IMG/VR virus record: IMGVR_UViG_2740892236_000004
Span: 1 to 11,680 of that record
Reading direction: 5' to 3' (one strand)
From: a virus
Lineage: Duplodnaviria > Heunggongvirae > Uroviricota > Caudoviricetes
Length of the DNA: 11,680 nt
Shown here: positions 1 through 8,752 of the stretch, piece by piece
Numbering within the stretch: the stretch's first letter is position 1
Layout of the letters: each line of letters starts with the position of its first letter
Notes under the pieces: generated by a model
Told to the model about the DNA's origin: nothing
What the model saw: only the letters and a program-made list of their open reading frames with translations
Database searches by the model: none
Translations under genes and position numbers: made by a program

Positions 1-947
1 GCTGAACTGATTGATGCCATTCGTGATGGTGTTGAGTGGTACAACAACCGGCCGCACGATGAATTACCGGTGAAGCCGAACGGCAAGCATTACAGCCCGG
101 CGGAGTTCAGAAAAAAACGCCTGGCGGAAGAGGACACGGAAATTGAATGGCTGTCCGATGTTGAACTGCGGGATATGTTCCGGCCGATGGTGGAGCGCCC
201 TGTAAGACGCTGTGAAATACGCTGGCTGAATAATATTTACTACGCGCCCGAGCTGCGTGACGAGCATGGCCGTAAGGTACTTATCAGCTATGACATTCAT
301 GATGCCGAACGAATTACCGTGCGCCGCCCGGATGGCAGCGTGATTTGCGAGGCGGTATGGGACGGCAATAAACGCGAAGCCTTCCCTGTCNNNNNNNNNN
401 TCGTAAGGTGCTTATCAGCTATGACATTCATGATGCCGAACGAATTACCGTACGTCGCCCGGATGGCAGCGTGATTTGCGAGGCGGTATGGGACGGCAAT
501 AAACGCGAAGCCTTCCCGGTCAGCGCGGAATACCACAAACAGCAGCAGCGCCTTAAAGGCATGCGTAAACGCGCAGAGGAAAAAATCCGTGATGCCGAGG
601 ATGAGGTTGTCAACGTGCTGGAGCACAAGCCGCAGGAGCCCTGGCTGGAAAACATATACCGCCCTGTGGGTAATACGGTGACCGTTCAGCAACCGGTCGC
701 TGACGATGAACCTGATGAAGAATACGAGCGTAATTTCCAGCGGGGATTNNNNNNNNNNATTGTCAACGTGCTGGAGCACAAGCCACAGGAGCCGTGGCTG
801 GAAAATATATACCGCCCTGTGGGTAATACGGTGATCGTTCAGCAACCGGTCGCTGACGATGAACCTGATGAAGAATACGAGCGTAATTTCCAGCGGGGAT
901 TGCAACTGCTCGAAGCGAAATTAAAAGAAAGTGATCCGCTGGCCTGA
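1..947 (+). CDS. A: Mu-type DDE transposase (MuA-like), C-terminal portion. The 5' end lies outside the window. As written, the frame is broken by two N10 scaffold joins (391-400, 749-758) with duplicated flanks.
   Basis: Frame-1 ORF open from base 1 (AELIDAIRDGVEWYNNRPHDELPVKPNGKHYSPAEF...). After each N run the same peptide segment is repeated in a shifted frame. Ends ...LQLLEAKLKESDPLA with TGA at 945-947. It sits directly upstream of a MuB-type ATPase gene, the arrangement typical of transposable phages. No motif-level proof of the DDE core is possible because only the C-terminal part is present. Confidence 0.75.
391..400. other. Scaffold join (10 N). Flanks 271-390 and 402-521 are the same sequence with a few substitutions.
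   Basis: Run of exactly 10 n. Sequence after the gap (tcgtaaggtgcttatcagctatgacattcatgatgccgaacg...) repeats the sequence before it (ccgtaaggtacttatcagctatgacattcatgatgccgaacg...). Confidence 0.97.
749..758. other. Scaffold join (10 N). Flanks 607-748 and 760-901 are near-identical overlaps.
   Basis: Run of exactly 10 n. ttgtcaacgtgctggagcacaagcc...cagcggggatt occurs on both sides with a few mismatches (ccgcag/ccacag, ccctgg/ccgtgg, gaccgtt/gatcgtt). Confidence 0.97.
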
Positions 948-1370: not shown

Positions 1371-2303
1371 ATGACCGATATAAACGATGTAATCAAGACC
1401 ATTGATGAACTTATTGATGGCGGCGTGCTGACGCAGTATGCCATCGCCAGAGAGGCGGGAATTTCCGACGGCACATTATCGGCTTTCCGCAAGGGGAAAT
1501 ATAAAGGCGATAACGCCGCTGTGGCTGCTTCCCTGCGCTCCTGGTATGAGAACTGGAATAAACAAAGCGCACTGCCGGAACCGCCGCAGTTTGTGGAAAC
1601 TCAGACAGTCCAGGAGCTGCGCGCACTGTTTCAGGCGGTTCGCCTGATGGGCTGTATTAACGTTATTGTGGGCGTACCGGGTGTGGGTAAAACGGCCACT
1701 GCCCGTAATTACTGCCAGGAGCAACCAAACACCTGGATGATCACCCTGTCACCCGCGCACTCCAGCGTCACGGAGTGTCTGCTGGAGCTGGCCGATGCGC
1801 TGGGGATTGATTACACCCGCGCGAACAAAGGGGCATTATCCCGCGCCATCCGCCGTCGCCTGATGGGAACGCGTGGACTGGTGATTGTGGATGAGGCGGA
1901 TCATCTTGGTATTGACGGTCTGGAGCAACTCCGGGCAATTCAGGACGCCTCGGGGATCGGGATGGTGCTTATTGGTAACCCGCGCGGATTGTTTAAAGGT
2001 GGACGCCGCGCCTTTGATGATTTATCGCGCCTGTTCAGCCGTCTTGCCCGTACAAAACAACTTCGCAAGGCCAAAAAGGCGGATGTGCTGGCCATTGCCA
2101 TGGCGTGGGGGATCAGTGGTGAGGCCGAGCTGGCCGTCATGCAGGCTATCGCTGAAAAGCCGGGAGCGTTACGCGTTCTGACACATACGCTTAACCAGGC
2201 GTGGCTCACCGCCAGCGGTGAAGGCGCGGCGCTGACAGAAAAACATATTAATGCGGCCTTTAAAGAGGTTTATACCAACCCTGAATTACTCTCACAGGTG
2301 TGA
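1371..2303 (+). CDS. B: Mu B-type DNA transposition / target-DNA activator protein (AAA+ ATPase with N-terminal HTH)
   Basis: 310-aa ORF. ATG 1371 is preceded by GAGGT at a 6-nt spacing. Walker A motif GVPGVGKTA and Walker B-like hhhhDEAD (LVIVDEADHL). Size (Mu B is about 312 aa) and position directly after the transposase gene both fit. Confidence 0.9.
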   Translation: MTDINDVIKTIDELIDGGVLTQYAIAREAGISDGTLSAFRKGKYKGDNAAVAASLRSWYENWNKQSALPEPPQFVETQTVQELRALFQAVRLMGCINVIVGVPGVGKTATARNYCQEQPNTWMITLSPAHSSVTECLLELADALGIDYTRANKGALSRAIRRRLMGTRGLVIVDEADHLGIDGLEQLRAIQDASGIGMVLIGNPRGLFKGGRRAFDDLSRLFSRLARTKQLRKAKKADVLAIAMAWGISGEAELAVMQAIAEKPGALRVLTHTLNQAWLTASGEGAALTEKHINAAFKEVYTNPELLSQV

Positions 2304-3350: not shown

Positions 3351-3644
3351 ATGAGCAAAGTACGCGTTATTTTTGAATTTAATCATGTTTCGCATGACGA
3401 AAAGTTGGCAGGCAATGACTGTGTTGAAGTGCATGAAAAGATTGGAGTGGATGTGAAAACAGAACGTGATACGGATAACAGGCCGACGTCACTCTGTGAC
3501 GTTTATGCAAGTATTCTCCAGTATCACAGTCCTGCAATTATTCAGTTTCTCTCAGCGGAATTTCAGGCATCTGCACAGTCTTTTGGAGCGGATGCCATCA
3601 TTAAACGCCACCGCGTGCATAAAGCATCAGGCACACTGCAATAA
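3351..3644 (+). CDS. Hypothetical small protein, paralog 2 of a tandem pair (N-terminus MSKVRVIFEF...)
   Basis: ATG 3351 with GGGG 7-8 nt upstream, 4 nt after the preceding TAA. The ORF track's longer 3324 start is in the same frame but overlaps the previous gene. Shared blocks with the upstream ORF: MSKV-R-IFE, D-NGP/D-NRP, AEF-A--AS-F. Confidence 0.55.
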   Translation: MSKVRVIFEFNHVSHDEKLAGNDCVEVHEKIGVDVKTERDTDNRPTSLCDVYASILQYHSPAIIQFLSAEFQASAQSFGADAIIKRHRVHKASGTLQ

Positions 3645-3655
3645 GGAAAAACAAA

Positions 3656-4186
3656 ATGGCTAAACGCGTTACAAAATTAAAGGCCGCAGCCGAGGCGGCA
3701 CCGCAGACCCGGGAAGAAGTCAGCCGTGATATCCGCACCCTGGGAGATATTCAGCGAGAGGCGCTGCGCCTGGAAACGGCGATGAATGACGAAGTGGCAG
3801 AAATCACCGCCCGTTATACGCCGCAGATTGAAAATCTTAAAAAGCAAATCAAAGTGCTTTTTAAAGGGATTCAGGACTGGTGCAAAACCAACCGTGATGA
3901 GCTGACGAACGGCGGCAAAACCAAAACAGCCAATCTGACCACCGGAACGGTGTCATGGCGGCTGGGAACGCCATCATGCAGCGTCAGCCGTGATGTGGAA
4001 GGTGTGATTGAAATGCTGCGCCGTATGGGGCTTGAGCGTTTCATCCGCACGAAAGAGGAAGTGAACAAGGAAGCCGTCCTGGCGGAGCCGGATGCTGTGA
4101 AAGGCATTGCCGGTATCAAGGTGAATAAAGGCGCTGAAAGTTTTTATGTCGAGCCTTTTGAACAGGACGCCGGACTGAATAAATAA
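3656..4186 (+). CDS. gam: Gam-like host-nuclease inhibitor (Mu Gam family, DNA-end-binding)
   Basis: 176 aa (Mu Gam is about 174 aa). Blocks such as LRLETAMNDEVAEITARY, ANRDELTNGGKTKTANLTTGTVSWR, GLERFIRTKEEVNKEAVLAEPDAVKGIAGI and FYVEPFEQ match my recollection of Mu Gam closely. AAGGA lies 8 nt upstream of ATG 3656. Confidence 0.88.
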   Translation: MAKRVTKLKAAAEAAPQTREEVSRDIRTLGDIQREALRLETAMNDEVAEITARYTPQIENLKKQIKVLFKGIQDWCKTNRDELTNGGKTKTANLTTGTVSWRLGTPSCSVSRDVEGVIEMLRRMGLERFIRTKEEVNKEAVLAEPDAVKGIAGIKVNKGAESFYVEPFEQDAGLNK

Positions 4187-4331
4187 CACCGCATTAATCA
4201 ATTAAATATCACTTCATTTTAATTATGGCGCTCGCGTCAGGGGACTGCTTGCGCCTGAAAACAGAAAATAAGGGTTAAGAAATATGAAATACGTTTATAT
4301 CGTCATTAATAATGTGGTGGGGAAATAAATC

Positions 4332-4865
4332 ATGATTGATGCAAAAGTGCTTGAAGGGGTTAAAAACTGGCTGTGTATTTATGGCCGCCTGACCTGCGGT
4401 GTACTGGCTGAAAAAATGAATATGCCGCCATCCTCCATGGTTTATTTTCTGCGTGATGCGGTTGATGCAGGCGTGCTGACGGAATGTAACGGTTTTTATG
4501 ATATTCCGCGCCCCCGCCCGGTGCAGCCGGTTCGTCGCAAATGCAGCCAGGAATCTGCGGCTGATGATGTTCAGTGGTGCGGCTTCAGAAAATCCCTGCC
4601 ATGGATTGAGGGGCATGATATTCCGTCGATGGCGTGGGAATTTGCTCAGGGCGTTCTGACCTGTGAAACCGTTTATGTGGTGGCTGAAGTTGATGAGCAG
4701 GCCATGAAAGAAGGCGTGCCCCAGTTTGTGATGGCGTATATCGACATACGCCTGGGCGTCATTATCTGCGGTTTAAGCGGCTGGAATATCACTGAACATG
4801 TTCTGCGCTACCTGATTGTTGACCGGACAGCAGCGCCTGCCGGGATATCTGCGGAGGTGGCGTAA
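4332..4865 (+). CDS. Hypothetical protein (177 aa), first gene of a six-gene coupled module. The N-terminal ~50 aa look like a winged-helix fold, but this is weak.
   Basis: ATG 4332 after a 145-bp AT-rich intergenic region. Stop TAA 4863-4865 overlaps the next ATG (4865). Confidence 0.55.
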   Translation: MIDAKVLEGVKNWLCIYGRLTCGVLAEKMNMPPSSMVYFLRDAVDAGVLTECNGFYDIPRPRPVQPVRRKCSQESAADDVQWCGFRKSLPWIEGHDIPSMAWEFAQGVLTCETVYVVAEVDEQAMKEGVPQFVMAYIDIRLGVIICGLSGWNITEHVLRYLIVDRTAAPAGISAEVA

Positions 4866-5380
4866 TGTTCTTTAAAACATCAAACCCTTCCGCGCTGGCT
4901 GCGTGGCAAAAATACCAGCAGGACTGCCAGAAAGTTAAGGATGAGGCAAAACGCCTTGAGGCCGTGCTGAATGTTGCGTGCCGGTCGGTATTTGTATCCG
5001 GTATCAGTGGATTTTGCTTTAAGGGACTGCGTTTTACGGAGGACAAATATCCTTTTCATCGCGACTTATGGCGAAAACCGACTGCGTCGAATGGCTGGAG
5101 CTGCACACCGCGCACATCACGTATCCCTAAAACCCTGCGTGTTGCCTCTGATGAACTGAACAGTCTGTGGCGTGAATATTCGCCCGTCACGTATGCCAGA
5201 ACCGATGCGCTGTTGTTCTGGCTGGGTATTGATTTCTCGGCAATCCTGTTTGGCCCTGTGAAGTGGTTCTGCGTTGACGATGTGATTTATCTTCAGTGCG
5301 AAGATGATTCCGCAAAACGGAAAATGACCGAAATTCTGTCTGATGAGTTTTATGCTGCCGAAAAGCGAGTCAGGGGGTGA
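4865..5380 (+). CDS. Hypothetical protein (171 aa)
   Basis: ATG 4865 overlaps the upstream stop (TAATG). No motif recognised. Confidence 0.55.
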   Translation: MFFKTSNPSALAAWQKYQQDCQKVKDEAKRLEAVLNVACRSVFVSGISGFCFKGLRFTEDKYPFHRDLWRKPTASNGWSCTPRTSRIPKTLRVASDELNSLWREYSPVTYARTDALLFWLGIDFSAILFGPVKWFCVDDVIYLQCEDDSAKRKMTEILSDEFYAAEKRVRG

Positions 5381-5383
5381 TGT

Positions 5384-5935
5384 ATGATGATTTTACAACA
5401 CATGGGGCGAAAAGGTCGTACACCCGCTCATGTCCGCGCGTGGACACCTGAAGAAGATGCGCTACTGATTGCGCTTTATTCATCCACCCCGGTTAAGGAT
5501 ATTGCTGCCAGAATAAAAAGAACTGTCTGGGCTGTATATAACCGGACTGGTGTATTGCGCAGTTCATACCCGGAGTTACTGAAATATAAACACCCAAGAT
5601 TTACACCTGATGAAGATAAGTTTATTCGAAACAATGCCAGAACAATGACCTGCCAGCAAATGGGAGAATATCTCGGACGTAATAAAGATTCTGTCAGATG
5701 TCGGGCAGGAATGATTGGTGCTGGATTAACAAAGTGCGGAGAGTTACGCCCCGGCACGCGCATATCTGATGATGATGTACGTCTTATACGTGCGCTGCGT
5801 GATTCCGATTACCCACGCCGTCTGTCATTCCGGGAAATTGGCGAAAAGTTTGGAATATCTGAACATTCTGCTCACGCAGTTTATTACCGTCGCCGGACTG
5901 CCGAGGACGCTGTATTACGGGAGTTAACGCCATGA
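5384..5935 (+). CDS. Putative DNA-binding protein with three tandem HTH-like repeats (Myb/SANT-like or sigma-70 region-4/LuxR-like)
   Basis: 183 aa, with GGGGG 6 nt upstream of ATG 5384. Three internally similar ~40-aa segments: WTPEEDALLIALYSSTPVKDIAARIKRTVWAVYNRTGVL / FTPDEDKFIRNNARTMTCQQMGEYLGRNKDSVRCRAGMIGAGL / ISDDDVRLIRALRDSDYPRRLSFREIGEKFGISEHSAHAVYYRR. Confidence 0.6.
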   Translation: MMILQHMGRKGRTPAHVRAWTPEEDALLIALYSSTPVKDIAARIKRTVWAVYNRTGVLRSSYPELLKYKHPRFTPDEDKFIRNNARTMTCQQMGEYLGRNKDSVRCRAGMIGAGLTKCGELRPGTRISDDDVRLIRALRDSDYPRRLSFREIGEKFGISEHSAHAVYYRRRTAEDAVLRELTP

Positions 5936-6261
5936 TAACGACCTTATTTGTTGAATCAGATGAACCTCTTGTGTGTGCCGCCGGAATGCCGCTCTGTGGC
6001 GGAACGCTGACCGGTGTTTATTTCGGGGATTTACGCGGTTATCCCTGGCATTCACTGAATGATGCTTTCCCACCTGATATGGAGGCTGTCGTGCTGATTG
6101 TTCAGTATGGTCACCGTCAGGAGCTGCGCATCGGCCATATGGGGTATGAAGGCTTTTTTGTTGATGAAGAAACCGGAGCCTGCCTTGAAGATGAAGACGG
6201 ACAGGTGACGCACTGGTGTCATATTTCGGCTTTACCGGAATTACGGGAGGTGAATGCGTGA
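5932..6261 (+). CDS. Hypothetical protein (109 aa)
   Basis: ATG 5932 overlaps the upstream TGA (ATGA). Its stop TGA 6259-6261 overlaps the next start (GTGA). Confidence 0.5.
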   Translation: MITTLFVESDEPLVCAAGMPLCGGTLTGVYFGDLRGYPWHSLNDAFPPDMEAVVLIVQYGHRQELRIGHMGYEGFFVDEETGACLEDEDGQVTHWCHISALPELREVNA

Positions 6262-6608
6262 GAAGTTATATTGATAATGAAAAGCTGGAGACAATAAGCG
6301 ACTGTCTTAGCTTGCTGGCAAAAATCAAAGAAACTATTGAAGAGATTAAATTTCAGCTTGAATACGCACCATGTGGCGATGATGCATGGCGTAATGCTGC
6401 CAGAAAAGCACTGGCTGTCTTTCAGAAACAACGCCGGGCTGTTGAATACCGCCTTGCTGTATTGCGCCAGGAGGAAAAGGAAAGAAATATAAGACGTCAT
6501 GAACGCGTTAATGATTTCCTTGTTCGTGAATTAAAAGAGCGCGTGCCGGAGTCGGTATTTTTTGAATGTGAGGCTATAGCCCGTAGCAAAGCACTGGAAA
6601 CAGATTAA
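6258..6608 (+). CDS. Hypothetical protein (about 116 aa), predicted largely helical and charged
   Basis: GTG 6258 with GGGAGG (6245-6250) 7 nt upstream, coupled to the upstream stop. The ORF track's ATG 6216 would overlap the previous gene by 46 nt and lacks an RBS. Confidence 0.5.
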   Translation: MRSYIDNEKLETISDCLSLLAKIKETIEEIKFQLEYAPCGDDAWRNAARKALAVFQKQRRAVEYRLAVLRQEEKERNIRRHERVNDFLVRELKERVPESVFFECEAIARSKALETD

Positions 6609-6623
6609 GCAGGCAGGTGAATA

Positions 6624-6932
6624 ATGAGTATTGAATTAAGATCGTCTTATGAATATCGCAAAATCCTTATCGCCGGAGGGATGAAACCGGAAGATGCTGA
6701 AAAATTCGTTTCTTTTATGGATAAAGAATGTGACAAGCGGGATATGCCAGAAATTATTATGGATGACATGATTCTGGATTCAGCCGTAGCGTTAAGTCCG
6801 TTATGGATTGTGCATACCCTTGCGGAAATAGCTAAAAGAAGTGACAAGCAGGCGGCTGTCGCCGCCCTGCGATTACTGGCTGAATTAAGTTGTTCAGTCA
6901 ATCCCAATACGTTCTTTGACGAACCTGGTTAA
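6624..6932 (+). CDS. Hypothetical protein (102 aa). Its 3' end overlaps the 3' end of the reverse-strand gene by about 39 nt.
   Basis: ATG 6624 with AGGTGA 4-5 nt upstream. AT-rich. Stop TAA 6930-6932. Confidence 0.55.
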   Translation: MSIELRSSYEYRKILIAGGMKPEDAEKFVSFMDKECDKRDMPEIIMDDMILDSAVALSPLWIVHTLAEIAKRSDKQAAVAALRLLAELSCSVNPNTFFDEPG

Positions 6933-7611
6933 CATTGATTTGGTAACTTCTTTAATTAGATCAAATGGTGCGTCTGTAAACTCCTTTTTGATTCTTTCAA
7001 GGATTGGTTTTTTTCTCAGGGCGTTAGCTAAATCANNNNNNNNNNTAGTCAATCCCAATACGTTCTTTGACGAACCTGGTTAACATTGATTTGGTAACTT
7101 CTTTGATTAGATCAAATGGCGCGTCTGTAAACTCCTTTTTGATTCTTTCAAGGATTGGTTTTTTTCTCAGGGCGTTAGCTAAATCATGCCCCTGCTGGGT
7201 AAGCATAATGGGCGTGTTTCTGAAACCAACGCCCAGAGAATGGAAAAAGAAACCAATATATTTGGGTGTTTCTGACTGCATATCACCATTAACAATTGAG
7301 CCATTATCAGCGAGAAGCATAAGATGAAAAACTTTTTTATCCTNNNNNNNNNNAGTAAGCATAATGGGCGTGTTTCTGAAACCAACGCCCAGAGAATGAA
7401 AAAAGAAACCAATATATTTTGGTGTTTCTGACCGCATATCACCATTAACAATTGAGCCATTATCAGCGAGAAGCATAAGATGAAAAACTTTTTTATCCTT
7501 TTCCTCTCCTTCTGCCTCAGCCATGCCCAGATCCTGTAGTGTAAGGAAAGGTGTTTCAGCATCCTGAAAAGTTGTGAGAATACTTAATACTTCATCGTAA
7601 TCTATTTTCAT
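6894..7611 (-). CDS. Hypothetical protein on the reverse strand (about 136 aa once the duplicated scaffold overlaps are collapsed). The only reverse-strand gene in the window; candidate accessory (moron) gene.
   Basis: Reverse-strand ATG (complement of 7609-7611) with AAAGG 7-8 nt upstream. Translation MKIDYDEVLSILTTFQDAETPFLTLQDLGMAEAEGEEKDKKVFHLMLLADNGSIVNGDMQSETPKYIGFFFHSLGVGFRNTPIMLTQQGHDLANALRKKPILERIKKEFTDAPFDLIKEVTKSMLTRFVKERIGID, stop TGA as complement of 6894-6896. Two N10 joins (7036-7045, 7344-7353) with duplicated flanks inflate the apparent length. Short hand counts put GC near 40% here versus about 56% in B. Confidence 0.6.
7036..7045. other. Scaffold join (10 N). Flanks 6896-7035 and 7047-7186 are near-identical overlaps.
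   Basis: Run of exactly 10 n. gtcaatcccaatacgttctttgacgaacctggttaacattgatttggtaacttctt... occurs on both sides with 2 substitutions seen. Confidence 0.97.
7344..7353. other. Scaffold join (10 N). Flanks 7199-7343 and 7355-7499 are near-identical overlaps.
   Basis: Run of exactly 10 n. gtaagcataatgggcgtgtttctgaaaccaacgcccagagaatg... occurs on both sides with a few substitutions. Confidence 0.97.
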
Positions 7612-7675
7612 ATCGATACCTTTAGTTTTATCCGGGCGGCGTTGCCATGCCGCCTGTTGTTACGGAGACACGATA

Positions 7676-8188
7676 ATGAATCGCGCTTCCCTGATTACCT
7701 TAATACATGTCGCAAAACGCGATCTACAGCTTGACCATGAGACCTACACATCCGTACTACTGGCAGCCACCGGCAAACCCAGTTGCCGGGATATGTCACC
7801 GGATGAGTTATCCCGCGTGCTGGATGTTTTCAAAAAACGCGGTTTTAAAGTGCGTCAGAAGCCGGTTAACCGGGCCTTAAAACCGGGTACGGTGACCGCC
7901 AAAATTCGCGCCATCTGGAAGGTGATGCACCGGCAGGGCTTTATCTCTGATGGCGGGGAAACAGCCCTTAACCGCTGGGTGAAATCGCAGACGGCCGCTC
8001 AGAACGGCGGCGAAGGTGTGGCTAACTGGCAGTGGCTGGAACAACACCCCGCGCTGGCCTCTGATGTGCTGGAGCGTCTCAAACGCTGGCACCGCCGCAA
8101 GATGCTGGATGTGCTGGGGATGTCAGCGCGTACAGTGATGAGTTATGAGCGCGTTTGCAGGCTGTATGAAGAATCCTCCCCCTTTTAA
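7676..8188 (+). CDS. gemA: GemA-like phage regulatory protein (Mu gene 16 family)
   Basis: 170 aa with GGAGA 7 nt upstream of ATG 7676. N-terminus MNRASLITLIHVAKRDLQLDHETYTSVLLAATGKPSCRDMSPDELSRVLDVFKKRGF fits my recollection of the GemA family pattern (SLIaqIHiAK..LgLDDdTYr..L...TGk.ScrDM...L..VLD.FKr.GF). Position just upstream of the Mor/C-type gene matches Mu. Confidence 0.7.
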   Translation: MNRASLITLIHVAKRDLQLDHETYTSVLLAATGKPSCRDMSPDELSRVLDVFKKRGFKVRQKPVNRALKPGTVTAKIRAIWKVMHRQGFISDGGETALNRWVKSQTAAQNGGEGVANWQWLEQHPALASDVLERLKRWHRRKMLDVLGMSARTVMSYERVCRLYEESSPF

Positions 8189-8192
8189 CCCC

Positions 8193-8224
8193 AAATCCCG
8201 CCACAGCGCGGGATTTTTATTTTA
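8193..8224 (+). terminator. Rho-independent terminator immediately after gemA
   Basis: Perfect 9-bp stem aaatcccgc (8193-8201) / gcgggattt (8207-8215), 5-nt loop cacag, then a T-rich tract ttttatttta. Starts 5 nt after the gemA stop. Confidence 0.8.
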
Positions 8225-8258
8225 AACTTGCCCTGTGTAATGATGACCGGAGGCGGGT

Positions 8259-8681
8259 ATGGCTGAAACACAGATGAGCATGTTTGGTGACAGCGAACAG
8301 CTGCACGCGCTGATTGACCGTCTGGATGATATTCCTGATGATGAGCTGAAAAAGAACTGGCCCGGCACGCTGCGGGACCTGGTTGATGTGATCAGTGCTG
8401 AACTGCACCGTCAGGGGATTGAACCTGCTCAGGCGGGAATGCTTGCCCGTAAGGTTGCAGCCGCACAGGCCGGGTACATGGGCGGGCGTGGTTATTATCT
8501 CCCGGTCGGTGAATCCCTTTTCACCGAACTGCGCAATAATGAAATTTTTTCCCGCTGGAGCCAGGGCGAAAAAATTGAAACCCTGCGCCGCCACTACCAG
8601 ATGTCAGAGACGCAGATTTACTCCGTTATCCGTAACCAGCGCCGCCTGCATCAGGAACGCACGCAGCCCCGGCTTTTCTGA
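8259..8681 (+). CDS. Mor/C-family transcriptional activator (Mu middle/late gene activator family). Which of the two Mu roles it plays is not resolvable from sequence.
   Basis: 140 aa with GGAGG 5 nt upstream of ATG 8259. The C-terminal HTH-like segment ETLRRHYQMSETQIYSVIRNQRRLHQER parallels the Mor/C C-terminal DNA-binding region. The acidic N-terminus and overall size fit. It lies between the terminator and the lysis genes. Confidence 0.72.
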   Translation: MAETQMSMFGDSEQLHALIDRLDDIPDDELKKNWPGTLRDLVDVISAELHRQGIEPAQAGMLARKVAAAQAGYMGGRGYYLPVGESLFTELRNNEIFSRWSQGEKIETLRRHYQMSETQIYSVIRNQRRLHQERTQPRLF

Positions 8682-8752
8682 TATTCCGCAAATCCTGCCC
8701 ACTTTTTCCCACGGTTACGCTGACTCAGAGAACACCATGAGACAGCGTAACA

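Follow-up and report, generated by a model that had tools for sequence, protein, structure and literature searches.

In phage Mu, arm denotes amplified replication and cim denotes control of immunity. Both map to Mu's SEE (semi-essential early) region (PMC4553209), which in Mu-like phages is made up of small, poorly conserved genes of unknown function (PMC8705779). One Mu-like prophage of E. coli O157:H7 Sakai, Sp18, is predicted to be intact and its DNA is packaged (PMC2669165). The interval analysed here, between gam and gemA, is the distal part of the known Mu SEE region: the array lies between A/B and gemA/mor, all on the plus strand, and gp11 and gp12 are the only genes that it has in common with Mu.

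The window (the whole stretch of DNA analysed, 11,680 nucleotides) is, by its sequence, an Sp18-type Mu-like prophage of E. coli. Prophages of E. coli TOE17 and AF39 were 99% identical to it and carried A, B, kil, gam ... gemA, mor and lysozyme in that order. Strains of O157:H7 reached approximately 90% nucleotide identity across 83% of the region, the link to Sp18 being made through the strain name and the literature on Sp18 (a 2026 paper naming Sp18 deals with an unrelated sRNA and was discarded). Related prophages were present in about 230 complete E. coli genomes. Assembly artefacts are present in the window as five N10 joins whose flanks are duplicated; none of them falls within 4187-6932. 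The features are listed in Table 1.

Table 1. Features of the window, with positions in nucleotides.
Feature	Position	Strand	Remarks
MuA C-terminus	70-947	+	
MuB	1371-2303	+	
gam (host-nuclease inhibitor), upstream anchor	3656..4186	+	Pfam Phage_Mu_Gam, 5.5e-42; 57% amino acid identity to Mu Gam
AU-rich tract and stem-loop, UUUUAAUUAU	4217..4262	+	outer stem GGCGC/GCGCC, inner stem GCGUC/GAC-GC, AGGG loop
Mini-ORF, 14 codons, MKYVYIVINNVVGK	4284..4328	+	fills insertion slot
ORF1, Mu gp11 homologue, 177 aa	4332-4865	+	predicted winged-helix-like N-terminus, linker, Gp11_C beta domain
ORF2, Mu gp12 family (PF26885), 171 aa	4865-5380	+	synteny after gp11
ORF3, 183 aa, basic (pI 10), three Myb/SANT-like HTH repeats	5384-5935	+	predicted DNA binder
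ORF4, 109 aa, very acidic (pI 4.3, net charge -14)	5932-6261	+	possibly DUF551-like
ORF5, 116 aa, charged, GTG start	6258-6608	+	phrog_6158
ORF6, 102 aa, phrog_1988 member	6624-6932	+	last 26 codons replaced
DUF2513 gene, 37.6% GC	6894..7611	-	position of Mu gp15
gemA (gp16), downstream anchor	7676..8188	+	Pfam GemA, 2.8e-28
mor	8259-8681	+	Pfam match

The six chained ORFs are real genes, all of them under purifying selection. The original prediction had placed six ORFs behind an AT-rich spacer; all six were present on the plus strand at the positions given there, and the same six are annotated by PGAP in E. coli AF39; the spacer spans 4187-4331 (145 bp, 35.9% GC). The stop/start chaining that had been described was found at every junction: TAATG (4863-4867), a 3-nt gap (5381-5383), ATGA (5932-5935), GTGA (6258-6261) and a 15-nt gap. 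Each of the six starts is preceded by a Shine-Dalgarno sequence of the GGAGG/GGGAG type 5-9 nt upstream, and each ORF matched a PHROG family (E values from 1e-38 to 1e-105). In divergent comparisons against relatives, dN/dS was 0.07-0.30 for ORF1-5 and approximately 0.2 for the retained part of ORF6, and the frames are intact and the Shine-Dalgarno sequences conserved in hundreds of genomes. Promoter-like and terminator-like sites did not exceed shuffle expectation and no strong plus-strand terminator was found within 4332-6932, which is consistent with a single transcription unit. The decrease in GC content noticed toward the end of the array was also observed (0.52, 0.50, 0.47, 0.51, 0.43 and 0.42 in ORF1 to ORF6, vs. 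0.55 in gemA and mor), and Mu does have fewer genes here, as had been stated (gp11-gp14 on the plus strand and gp15 on the minus strand, vs. six plus-strand genes and one minus-strand gene in the window).

ORF1 is 68% identical to Mu gp11 over its full length, lies in the same place after gam and scored 139.2 bits against Gp11_C (Pfam PF25754, cutoff 27). The structure model of gp11 was poor (pLDDT 58), its usable match being the N-terminal winged helix alone. The gp11 N-terminus would thus be winged-helix-like, based on about 50 residues of moderate confidence, and the low-confidence linker may be disordered. ORF2 is 53% identical to Mu gp12 (residues 1-169) and carries the RefSeq name 'Mu-Gp12 family protein'; it was assigned to PF26885 via its homologues, every one of which has a precomputed match to this family. 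The gp12 model was confident and matched none of the solved folds; gp12 may adopt a phage-specific alpha/beta fold.

ORF3 passed the Pfam Myb_DNA-binding (PF00249) cutoff marginally (25.0 bits, cutoff 24.4). Its repeats are approximately 55 aa long and open with WTPEEDALL, FTPDEDKFI and ISDDDVRLI; the third showed additional, weaker matches to HTH_AsnC and HTH_10. The protein belongs to phrog_323 (7.5e-52), and a P2-like Citrobacter phage encodes a 35% identical homologue among its early genes, where it is flanked by cox and the replication endonuclease. ORF3 was not found in Mu by tblastn. An equivalence with Mu gp9 was rejected: both share a PHROG/RefSeq name ('transcriptional regulator, D5-like') but no pairwise similarity.

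The ORF4 family is confined to Mu-like prophages of E. coli and Salmonella. An exhaustive HMMER search retrieved 14 representatives among 1.84 billion and no informative remote relatives. ORF4 itself did not match DUF551 (PF04448) even at E<=10, while a remote member of its family (P0069) gave a score below threshold (15.9 bits, cutoff 22, E 0.025). A further candidate relative (P0070, 981 aa with repeated stretches) was rejected as a spurious low-complexity similarity.

The start of ORF5 given in the table corresponds to the 351-bp version called by RefSeq/PGAP; the ORF list takes an upstream GTG at 6216. The protein is probably helical, judging by weak matches to helical and coiled-coil chains. 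Homologues with 40% identity were found in lambdoid and siphophage genomes, adjoining xis-int in the lambdoid phage Fraca. The identity of ORF6 to the full-length 110-aa form ends at residue 76. Its 3' end overlaps the converging DUF2513 gene, and its terminal codons are read-through into the DUF2513 antisense strand; from these alignments, ORF6 is a truncated remnant whose 3' end was replaced by a rare reverse-strand DUF2513 cassette. The true length of the DUF2513 gene is 411 bp, inflated in the window by two of the N10 joins. The complete variant, with truncated ORF6 and DUF2513, was present in 6 of 5426 complete E. coli genomes. We also considered ORF6 as Mu gp14 and DUF2513 as Mu gp15; positions are equivalent in both cases, and no homology was detectable in either.

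No enzyme motif was found in any of the six proteins with Pfam, NCBIfam or PADLOC, nor by searching the PDB with sequences and profiles, in agreement with what had been reported from the letters alone. NCBIfam gave no matches to any of them, and the PADLOC-DB defence-system models gave none except ORF6 against PDC-S72 (E 0.068). In the PDB, neither sequence searches with each of the six nor profile searches with gp11, gp12 and ORF4 yielded a significant match; the hits of ORF5 and ORF6 in the sequence searches were coiled-coil or designed-repeat noise. Nothing specific came out of literature searches on gp11/gp12, Mup11-15, DUF2513 and anti-defence in the early regions of Mu-like phages, and no expression, deletion or binding results were found for any of the six genes.

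Gene content was then compared across 44 complete gam-gemA intervals from IMG/VR, a sample chosen by the presence of the stem-loop described below and therefore spanning the enterobacterial lineage alone. There were 26 gene architectures among them. The most frequent gene was gp11 (40 intervals), followed by gp12 (26), ORF6 (20), ORF3 (15), ORF4 (13) and ORF5 (6). All six genes were together in 6 of the 44, and the consistent co-occurrence of a fixed multi-gene system was not observed. ORF5 was always accompanied by the other five (6/6), so it may depend on its neighbours, while gp12, ORF3, ORF4 and ORF6 were each found without some of the others. At least seven architectures were seen among the inspected E. 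coli genomes, some lacking ORF4 and ORF5, others lacking ORF5 and ORF6, and others with extra genes. In Salmonella variants, DUF3164 replaces Gam, gp12 is dropped, or a dATP/dGTP pyrophosphohydrolase occupies the ORF5/ORF6 slot. The order is collinear: [X2260][DUF5420] gp11 [gp12][Myb][ORF4][ORF5][gp13][ORF6][gp14 or others][reverse gene] gemA. Within the same genome pair, dS jumped between neighbours (0.04 in ORF2-ORF4 vs. 0.25-0.78 in ORF5-ORF6), a sign of recombination where genes adjoin. A set of 42 Gam-anchored Mu-like loci, mainly from other genera, contained none of the six genes. In the comparison that had been suggested, the interval did behave as a variable cargo hotspot. Taken together, the number of architectures, the rarity of the full set and its absence from the Gam-anchored loci indicate a cassette hotspot and not one fixed system.

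A stem-loop lies in the spacer. In alignments of those enterobacterial Mu-like phages that were examined, Mu and D108 among them, it is directly 3' of Gam or DUF3164. It was present in 79 IMG/VR contigs. The stem covaries (C-G to U-A), and the G.U wobbles fit the plus strand alone; the observed covariation score was reached by 0 of 500 shuffles. The covariance model scored 72.5 bits at 4217-4262 and detected no stem-loop in the non-enterobacterial loci searched. A second match in the window (3559-3606, minus strand, 24.6 bits, E 0.039) was regarded as a chance hit. No Rfam family was found in the spacer at a permissive threshold, and we found no paper describing a conserved stem-loop. This conserved, covarying element, which heads the array and is common to Mu, was the most unexpected item of the analysis. 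The mini-ORF that follows starts at the position of the Mu gp11 start, which is also the start of an extra 180-aa gene in relatives, where phrog_2260 and/or DUF5420 genes occupy this slot. What comes downstream of the stem-loop is either gp11 or an inserted cassette.

The best explanation, to which we assign a probability of about 0.7, is that this part of a Mu-like E. coli prophage is a SEE-region array whose accessory cassettes are independent of one another. By analogy with Mu, the genes would be silent in the lysogen and, on induction or infection, would form the tail of the early transcript from Pe and then be translated by coupling; the six would provide dispensable accessory functions, a view that natural variants without one or another of the genes support indirectly. 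The protein features suggest two putative DNA binders, gp11, through its winged-helix-like N-terminus, and the three-repeat Myb-like ORF3. ORF4, ORF5 and ORF6 would be of the small acidic or helical kind that usually binds and blocks a host or phage protein. In our reading, each cassette would act alone in lytic growth, by adjusting the physiology of the host or the replication of the phage or by overcoming a host barrier. The gp11/gp12 core would more likely serve replication or regulation, as in the case of the genetically mapped Mu functions arm and cim, and the distal cassettes (ORF4-6 and the reverse DUF2513 gene) host-specific conflict; this split is drawn from turnover rates alone. The functions of the individual proteins are much less certain than the identity of the region.

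The original prediction had singled out the interval as the most plausible site for an undescribed host-takeover or anti-defence system. The part concerning real, chained and variable cargo genes holds, while the piecewise gain and loss of genes argues against one six-gene system. Tight chaining, the six intervals with the full set and the restriction of ORF5 to that set would suit a single co-translated, multi-component system; we nevertheless consider it very improbable, because the genes come and go independently in E. coli and Salmonella, gp11 and gp12 occur without ORF3-6 in Mu and D108, P2-like and lambdoid phages have lone homologues of ORF3 and ORF5, what is left of ORF6 is truncated, and chaining also joins neighbouring early genes of this prophage lineage and of Mu. 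Equally improbable is a reading of the ORFs, or of some of them, as decaying genes or filler without function. The loss of the native C-terminus of ORF6, the resemblance of the mini-ORF to a deletion scar and the lower GC of ORF5 and ORF6 are in its favour, but the low dN/dS values, including that of the retained part of ORF6, and the intact frames with conserved ribosome-binding sites oppose it, and the selection signal refutes it for ORF1-5.

The remaining alternatives concern what the cassettes do. The core (gp11, gp12 and perhaps ORF3) could act on the phage itself, as a transposition/replication auxiliary or an immunity regulator corresponding to the genetically defined Mu function arm or cim, and gp11 might bind the stem-loop region just 5' of its gene. 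The conservation of gp11 from Mu to Salmonella prophages, its predicted winged-helix-like N-terminus, the location of arm and cim within the SEE region (PMC4553209) and the conserved element 5' of gp11 or of an inserted cassette speak for this possibility, but the stem-loop occurs without gp11 in 4 of the 44 intervals, and on balance we lean against it. Rather unlikely, and overlapping with the array of independent cassettes, is an anti-defence role for one or more of the distal cassettes ORF4, ORF5 and ORF6. The foremost candidate, ORF4, could be a DNA mimic or a stoichiometric inhibitor of a host immune protein: it is strongly acidic for its 109 aa, its family is extremely narrow and lineage-specific, as expected of arms-race genes, and it belongs to a predicted early operon adjoining the anti-RecBCD gene gam, with fast turnover of the distal slots and a dATP/dGTP pyrophosphohydrolase in the same slot of a Salmonella relative. 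Against this, Pfam, NCBIfam and PDB searches revealed no similarity to characterised inhibitors, the sole remote link of ORF4 is to DUF551, whose function is itself unknown, acidity by itself says little, and ORF6 is truncated in the window. A broader proposal, which we regard as unlikely, is that enterobacterial Mu-like phages use the array as a cargo bay for counter-defence and host takeover, that the stem-loop is an undescribed cis-acting RNA element, and that one or more distal cassettes (ORF4 being the best candidate) inhibit a host protein of immunity or repair in a new way. The stem-loop, for example an RNase E processing and 5'-stabiliser hairpin or a protein-binding operator, would then mark off the conserved replication genes (A, B ... 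gam) from the cargo and set the expression of the cassette behind it.

The discovery value of the region is small, as this is a textbook SEE region, E. coli genomes with 99% identical DNA have been sequenced, and all of the genes belong to families of unknown function that are already catalogued. The array of independent cassettes nevertheless offers a map for experiments, with a stable core (gp11, gp12 and the Myb-like protein) and fast-turning slots located after the stem-loop, after ORF3/ORF4 and at the reverse gene before gemA; a search for genes with which Mu-like phages counter defence or modulate the host would start from these slots. The stem-loop is a small, concrete new lead on the organisation of the Mu early transcript.

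[quoted passage not shown] As in Mu, the gp11-gp12 pair comes right after gam with the stem-loop between gam and gp11, the small genes are chained, and a reverse-strand gene lies just 5' of gemA (gp15 in Mu, DUF2513 here). By contrast, ORF3-ORF6 stand where Mu has gp13 and gp14, which belong to different PHROG families and have no detectable similarity to them; the interval measures 3.5 kb in this prophage, against 1.9 kb in Mu; and gemA and mor, which overlap in Mu, are separated here by a hairpin terminator. The gp11-gp12-Myb-ORF4-ORF5 core is common to the window and its Sp18 relatives. Most of these relatives differ in carrying the extra 180-aa phrog_2260 gene after the stem-loop, absent from the window, and full-length ORF6 followed by phrog_2358 and phrog_17269, in place of the truncated ORF6 and rare DUF2513 of the window. 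Ocr and ArdA are small acidic anti-restriction DNA mimics; ORF4 resembles them in being small, strongly acidic and presumably early, although no sequence or profile similarity was found. Lambdoid and P2-like phages differ in type and replication strategy, and they have single cassettes, not the array, in common with the window. The arrangement itself, small chained non-essential genes recombining at their borders, resembles the accessory or 'moron' early regions of temperate phages (exo-xis/b in lambda, cox to the replication gene in P2).

The interval between gam and gemA in this Mu-like prophage early region of E. coli belongs to a known kind of region, one with variable accessory content. 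The window was 99% identical over 3600-8700 to prophages in the chromosomes of E. coli TOE17, AF39 and JE86; its identity to a prophage of O157:H7 strains, taken as Sp18-type on the basis of published work and strain names and not by direct comparison, was about 90%. The DNA of the related prophage Sp18, which is predicted to be intact, is packaged (PMC2669165). In AF39, the RefSeq gene order is transposase, AAA ATPase (MuB), small genes including Kil, Gam, six + strand genes, a reverse DUF2513 gene, gp16/GemA, Mor and lysozyme; Gam, GemA and Mor were confirmed in the window by Pfam. Five N10 joins link overlapping pieces. After each join the sequence resumes 120-335 bp earlier on AF39, with a few SNPs between the duplicate copies, as if overlapping contigs, possibly from strain variants, had been scaffolded together. 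Because the pieces restart earlier, the MuA/MuB region and the DUF2513 gene are artefactually inflated or duplicated, and the joins create false ORFs containing XXXX. The array interval lies entirely within one continuous piece.

Coordinates of features in the window
Feature	Coordinates	Strand	Remarks
N10 joins	391-400, 749-758, 1243-1252, 7036-7045, 7344-7353		link overlapping pieces
AU-rich tract and stem-loop	4217-4262	+	directly after gam, in the 145-bp spacer
14-codon mini-ORF MKYVYIVINNVVGK	4284-4328	+	fills the slot behind the stem-loop
ORF1 (Mu gp11 homologue)	4332-4865	+	
ORF2 (Mu gp12 family)	4865-5380	+	
ORF3	5384-5935	+	
ORF4	5932-6261	+	
ORF5	6258-6608	+	
ORF6	6624-6932	+	
DUF2513 gene	6894-7611	-	converges on and overlaps ORF6
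Perfect 9-bp hairpin with flanking A and T runs, AAATCCCGCCACAGCGCGGGATTT TTATTTT	8193-8216	+	between gemA and mor

The six ORFs are genuine genes, judging from their annotation, family membership and substitution pattern. PGAP annotates the same six, each matches a PHROG family (E 1e-38 or better), and dN/dS was 0.07-0.30 in informative comparisons with E. coli and Salmonella relatives. Their coordinates and chained junctions (TAATG, ATGA, GTGA and gaps of 3 and 15 nt) were as originally predicted, as were the AT-rich 145-bp spacer (35.9% GC) and the lower GC content of the later genes, which falls from 0.52 (ORF1) to 0.42 (ORF6) and 0.38 (reverse gene), compared to 0.55 in gemA and mor. Every one of the six starts has a Shine-Dalgarno sequence. 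Promoter-like and terminator-like sites between 3500 and 8800 were in no excess over the shuffle expectation and the array has no strong internal + strand terminator, consistent with a single transcription unit.

The original prediction took the six genes to be the window's most plausible location for an undescribed host-takeover or anti-defence system, and suggested that the interval might be a variable cargo hotspot. The latter was borne out. Using the stem-loop as an anchor we obtained 79 IMG/VR contigs, 44 of them with a complete stem-loop-to-gemA interval (1.0-3.8 kb), and these showed 26 architectures. Gp11 was present in 40/44, gp12 in 26/44, the ORF6 family in 20/44, ORF3 in 15/44, ORF4 in 13/44 and ORF5 in 6/44. 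The order of the genes, where present, was always collinear, and the full set occurred in six intervals. The genes thus behave as independent cassettes, which argues against a single six-gene system. The dS between neighbouring genes differed about 20-fold within the same genome pair (window 4865-6932 against loci L004 and L006; for example 0.035-0.044 in ORF2-4, 0.25 in ORF5, 0.78 in ORF6 and 1.5 in mor), indicating recent recombination with breakpoints at gene borders. Nor is the region undescribed. It is of a known kind, and public genomes and family catalogues already include it.

Inspection of E. coli genomes gave at least seven architectures. Gam is or is not followed by a 180-aa phrog_2260 gene, ORF3 has two alleles (~70% identity), a 61-aa gene may stand in place of ORF4 and ORF5 or a 103-aa gene in place of ORF5 and ORF6, and ORF6 is followed either by phrog_2358 and phrog_17269 or by the reverse DUF2513 gene. 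Among 5426 complete E. coli genomes, the gp11-gp12 block was present in 232 and the ORF3-5 block in 124 (both at ≥80% coverage), the 5' part of ORF6 in 214, and the truncated ORF6 with DUF2513, as in the window, in six. Salmonella relatives have DUF3164 in place of Gam and an inserted DUF5420, and sometimes miss gp12. One Salmonella prophage (L052), lacking gp12 and with Gam swapped for DUF3164, carries a 356-aa dATP/dGTP pyrophosphohydrolase (PF04447; 6326-7396 of that locus) in the ORF5/ORF6 slot.

The array is headed by a conserved element in which an AU-rich tract, UUUUAAUUAU, precedes a stem-loop of two tiers (outer stem GGCGC/GCGCC, inner stem GCGUC/GAC-GC, AGGG loop). It is conserved in Mu, D108, a Yersinia Muvirus and Salmonella Mu-like prophages, and is kept even where DUF3164 replaces Gam and where the downstream gene differs. 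Seven of 21 distinct variants have U-A instead of C-G as the fifth outer pair, with one U.G intermediate, and the sixth alternates between G-C and A-U; all wobbles are compatible solely with a + strand RNA. The covariation score was reached by 0/500 shuffles, a statistic tempered by the shared ancestry of the sequences, and pairing was 92% in the true register vs. 32-52% in slid registers. No Rfam family matched. A covariance model scored the window element at 72.5 bits and did not find it in the non-enterobacterial Mu-like loci searched; a second match just upstream of gam (3559-3606, - strand; 24.6 bits, E 0.039) is probably due to chance. Our guess is that the stem-loop is a putative mRNA processing or stabiliser site, or a protein-binding operator. 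Directly behind it lies an insertion slot, empty in Mu and elsewhere occupied by phrog_2260 and/or DUF5420 genes. The mini-ORF starts at the position of the Mu gp11 start, where relatives start the 180-aa phrog_2260 gene or DUF5420, and looks like a scar or placeholder of this slot.

At the other end, the DUF2513 cassette, a candidate lysogen-expressed moron, supplants the native 3' end of ORF6 and the two genes that follow it in most relatives. ORF6 (phrog_1988) matches the full-length 110-aa form up to residue 76, and its final 26 codons are read-through into the antisense of DUF2513. The gemA-mor hairpin may attenuate read-through into mor. It also marks another insertion slot, since in E. 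coli M1 two copies (4195-4218 and 4840-4863 of locus L056) bracket a 645-bp cassette with a reverse-strand gene.

As predicted, the proteins carry no assignable enzyme motif, and none matched NCBIfam, PADLOC or PDB in sequence/profile searches. DNA binding is the most likely role of gp11 and ORF3. ORF3 (phrog_323) is basic (pI 10), with three ~55-residue repeats resembling Myb/SANT and AsnC-type HTH motifs; it has a homologue (35% identity) among the early genes of a P2-like Citrobacter phage, and the repeat also occurs in mycobacteriophage loci whose annotation is HNH endonuclease or methylase. ORF4-6 are predicted, most likely, to be small proteins that bind or inhibit a host or phage protein. 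ORF4, with a net charge of -14 and a pI of 4.3, is strongly acidic and taxonomically very narrow (18 clusters in a 5.8-billion-sequence collection; 14 representatives when 1.84 billion proteins were scanned exhaustively with HMMER); all matches with a source name were from E. coli or Salmonella, and one remote family member gave a sub-threshold match to DUF551. ORF5 (116 aa, charged, probably helical) has homologues (40% identity) in lambdoid and siphophage genomes, adjoining xis-int in phage Fraca. A counter-defence role for one distal cassette is plausible, if rather unlikely. Among the by-products, the map of slots and the conserved stem-loop are of most use.

By tblastn, none of the six genes was found in 42 Gam-anchored Mu-like loci, mostly from other genera (Gilliamella, Haemophilus, Pseudomonas, Rhodobacter and others), where Gam and GemA, if both detected, lie ~0.1 to 5 kb apart. 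By analogy with Mu, the cassettes would be dispensable and expressed only from the early promoter Pe, in lytic development. Mu has fewer genes between gam and gemA, as anticipated, namely four + strand genes (gp11-gp14) and one - strand gene (gp15). Mu and the array have only gp11 and gp12 in common, whereas gp13-15 belong to other PHROG families with no similarity to ORF3-6 or the DUF2513 protein, and tblastn gave no ORF3 homologue in Mu. GemA and mor overlap in Mu but are separated by the hairpin in the window. The DUF2513 gene sits in the slot that gp15 takes up in Mu.
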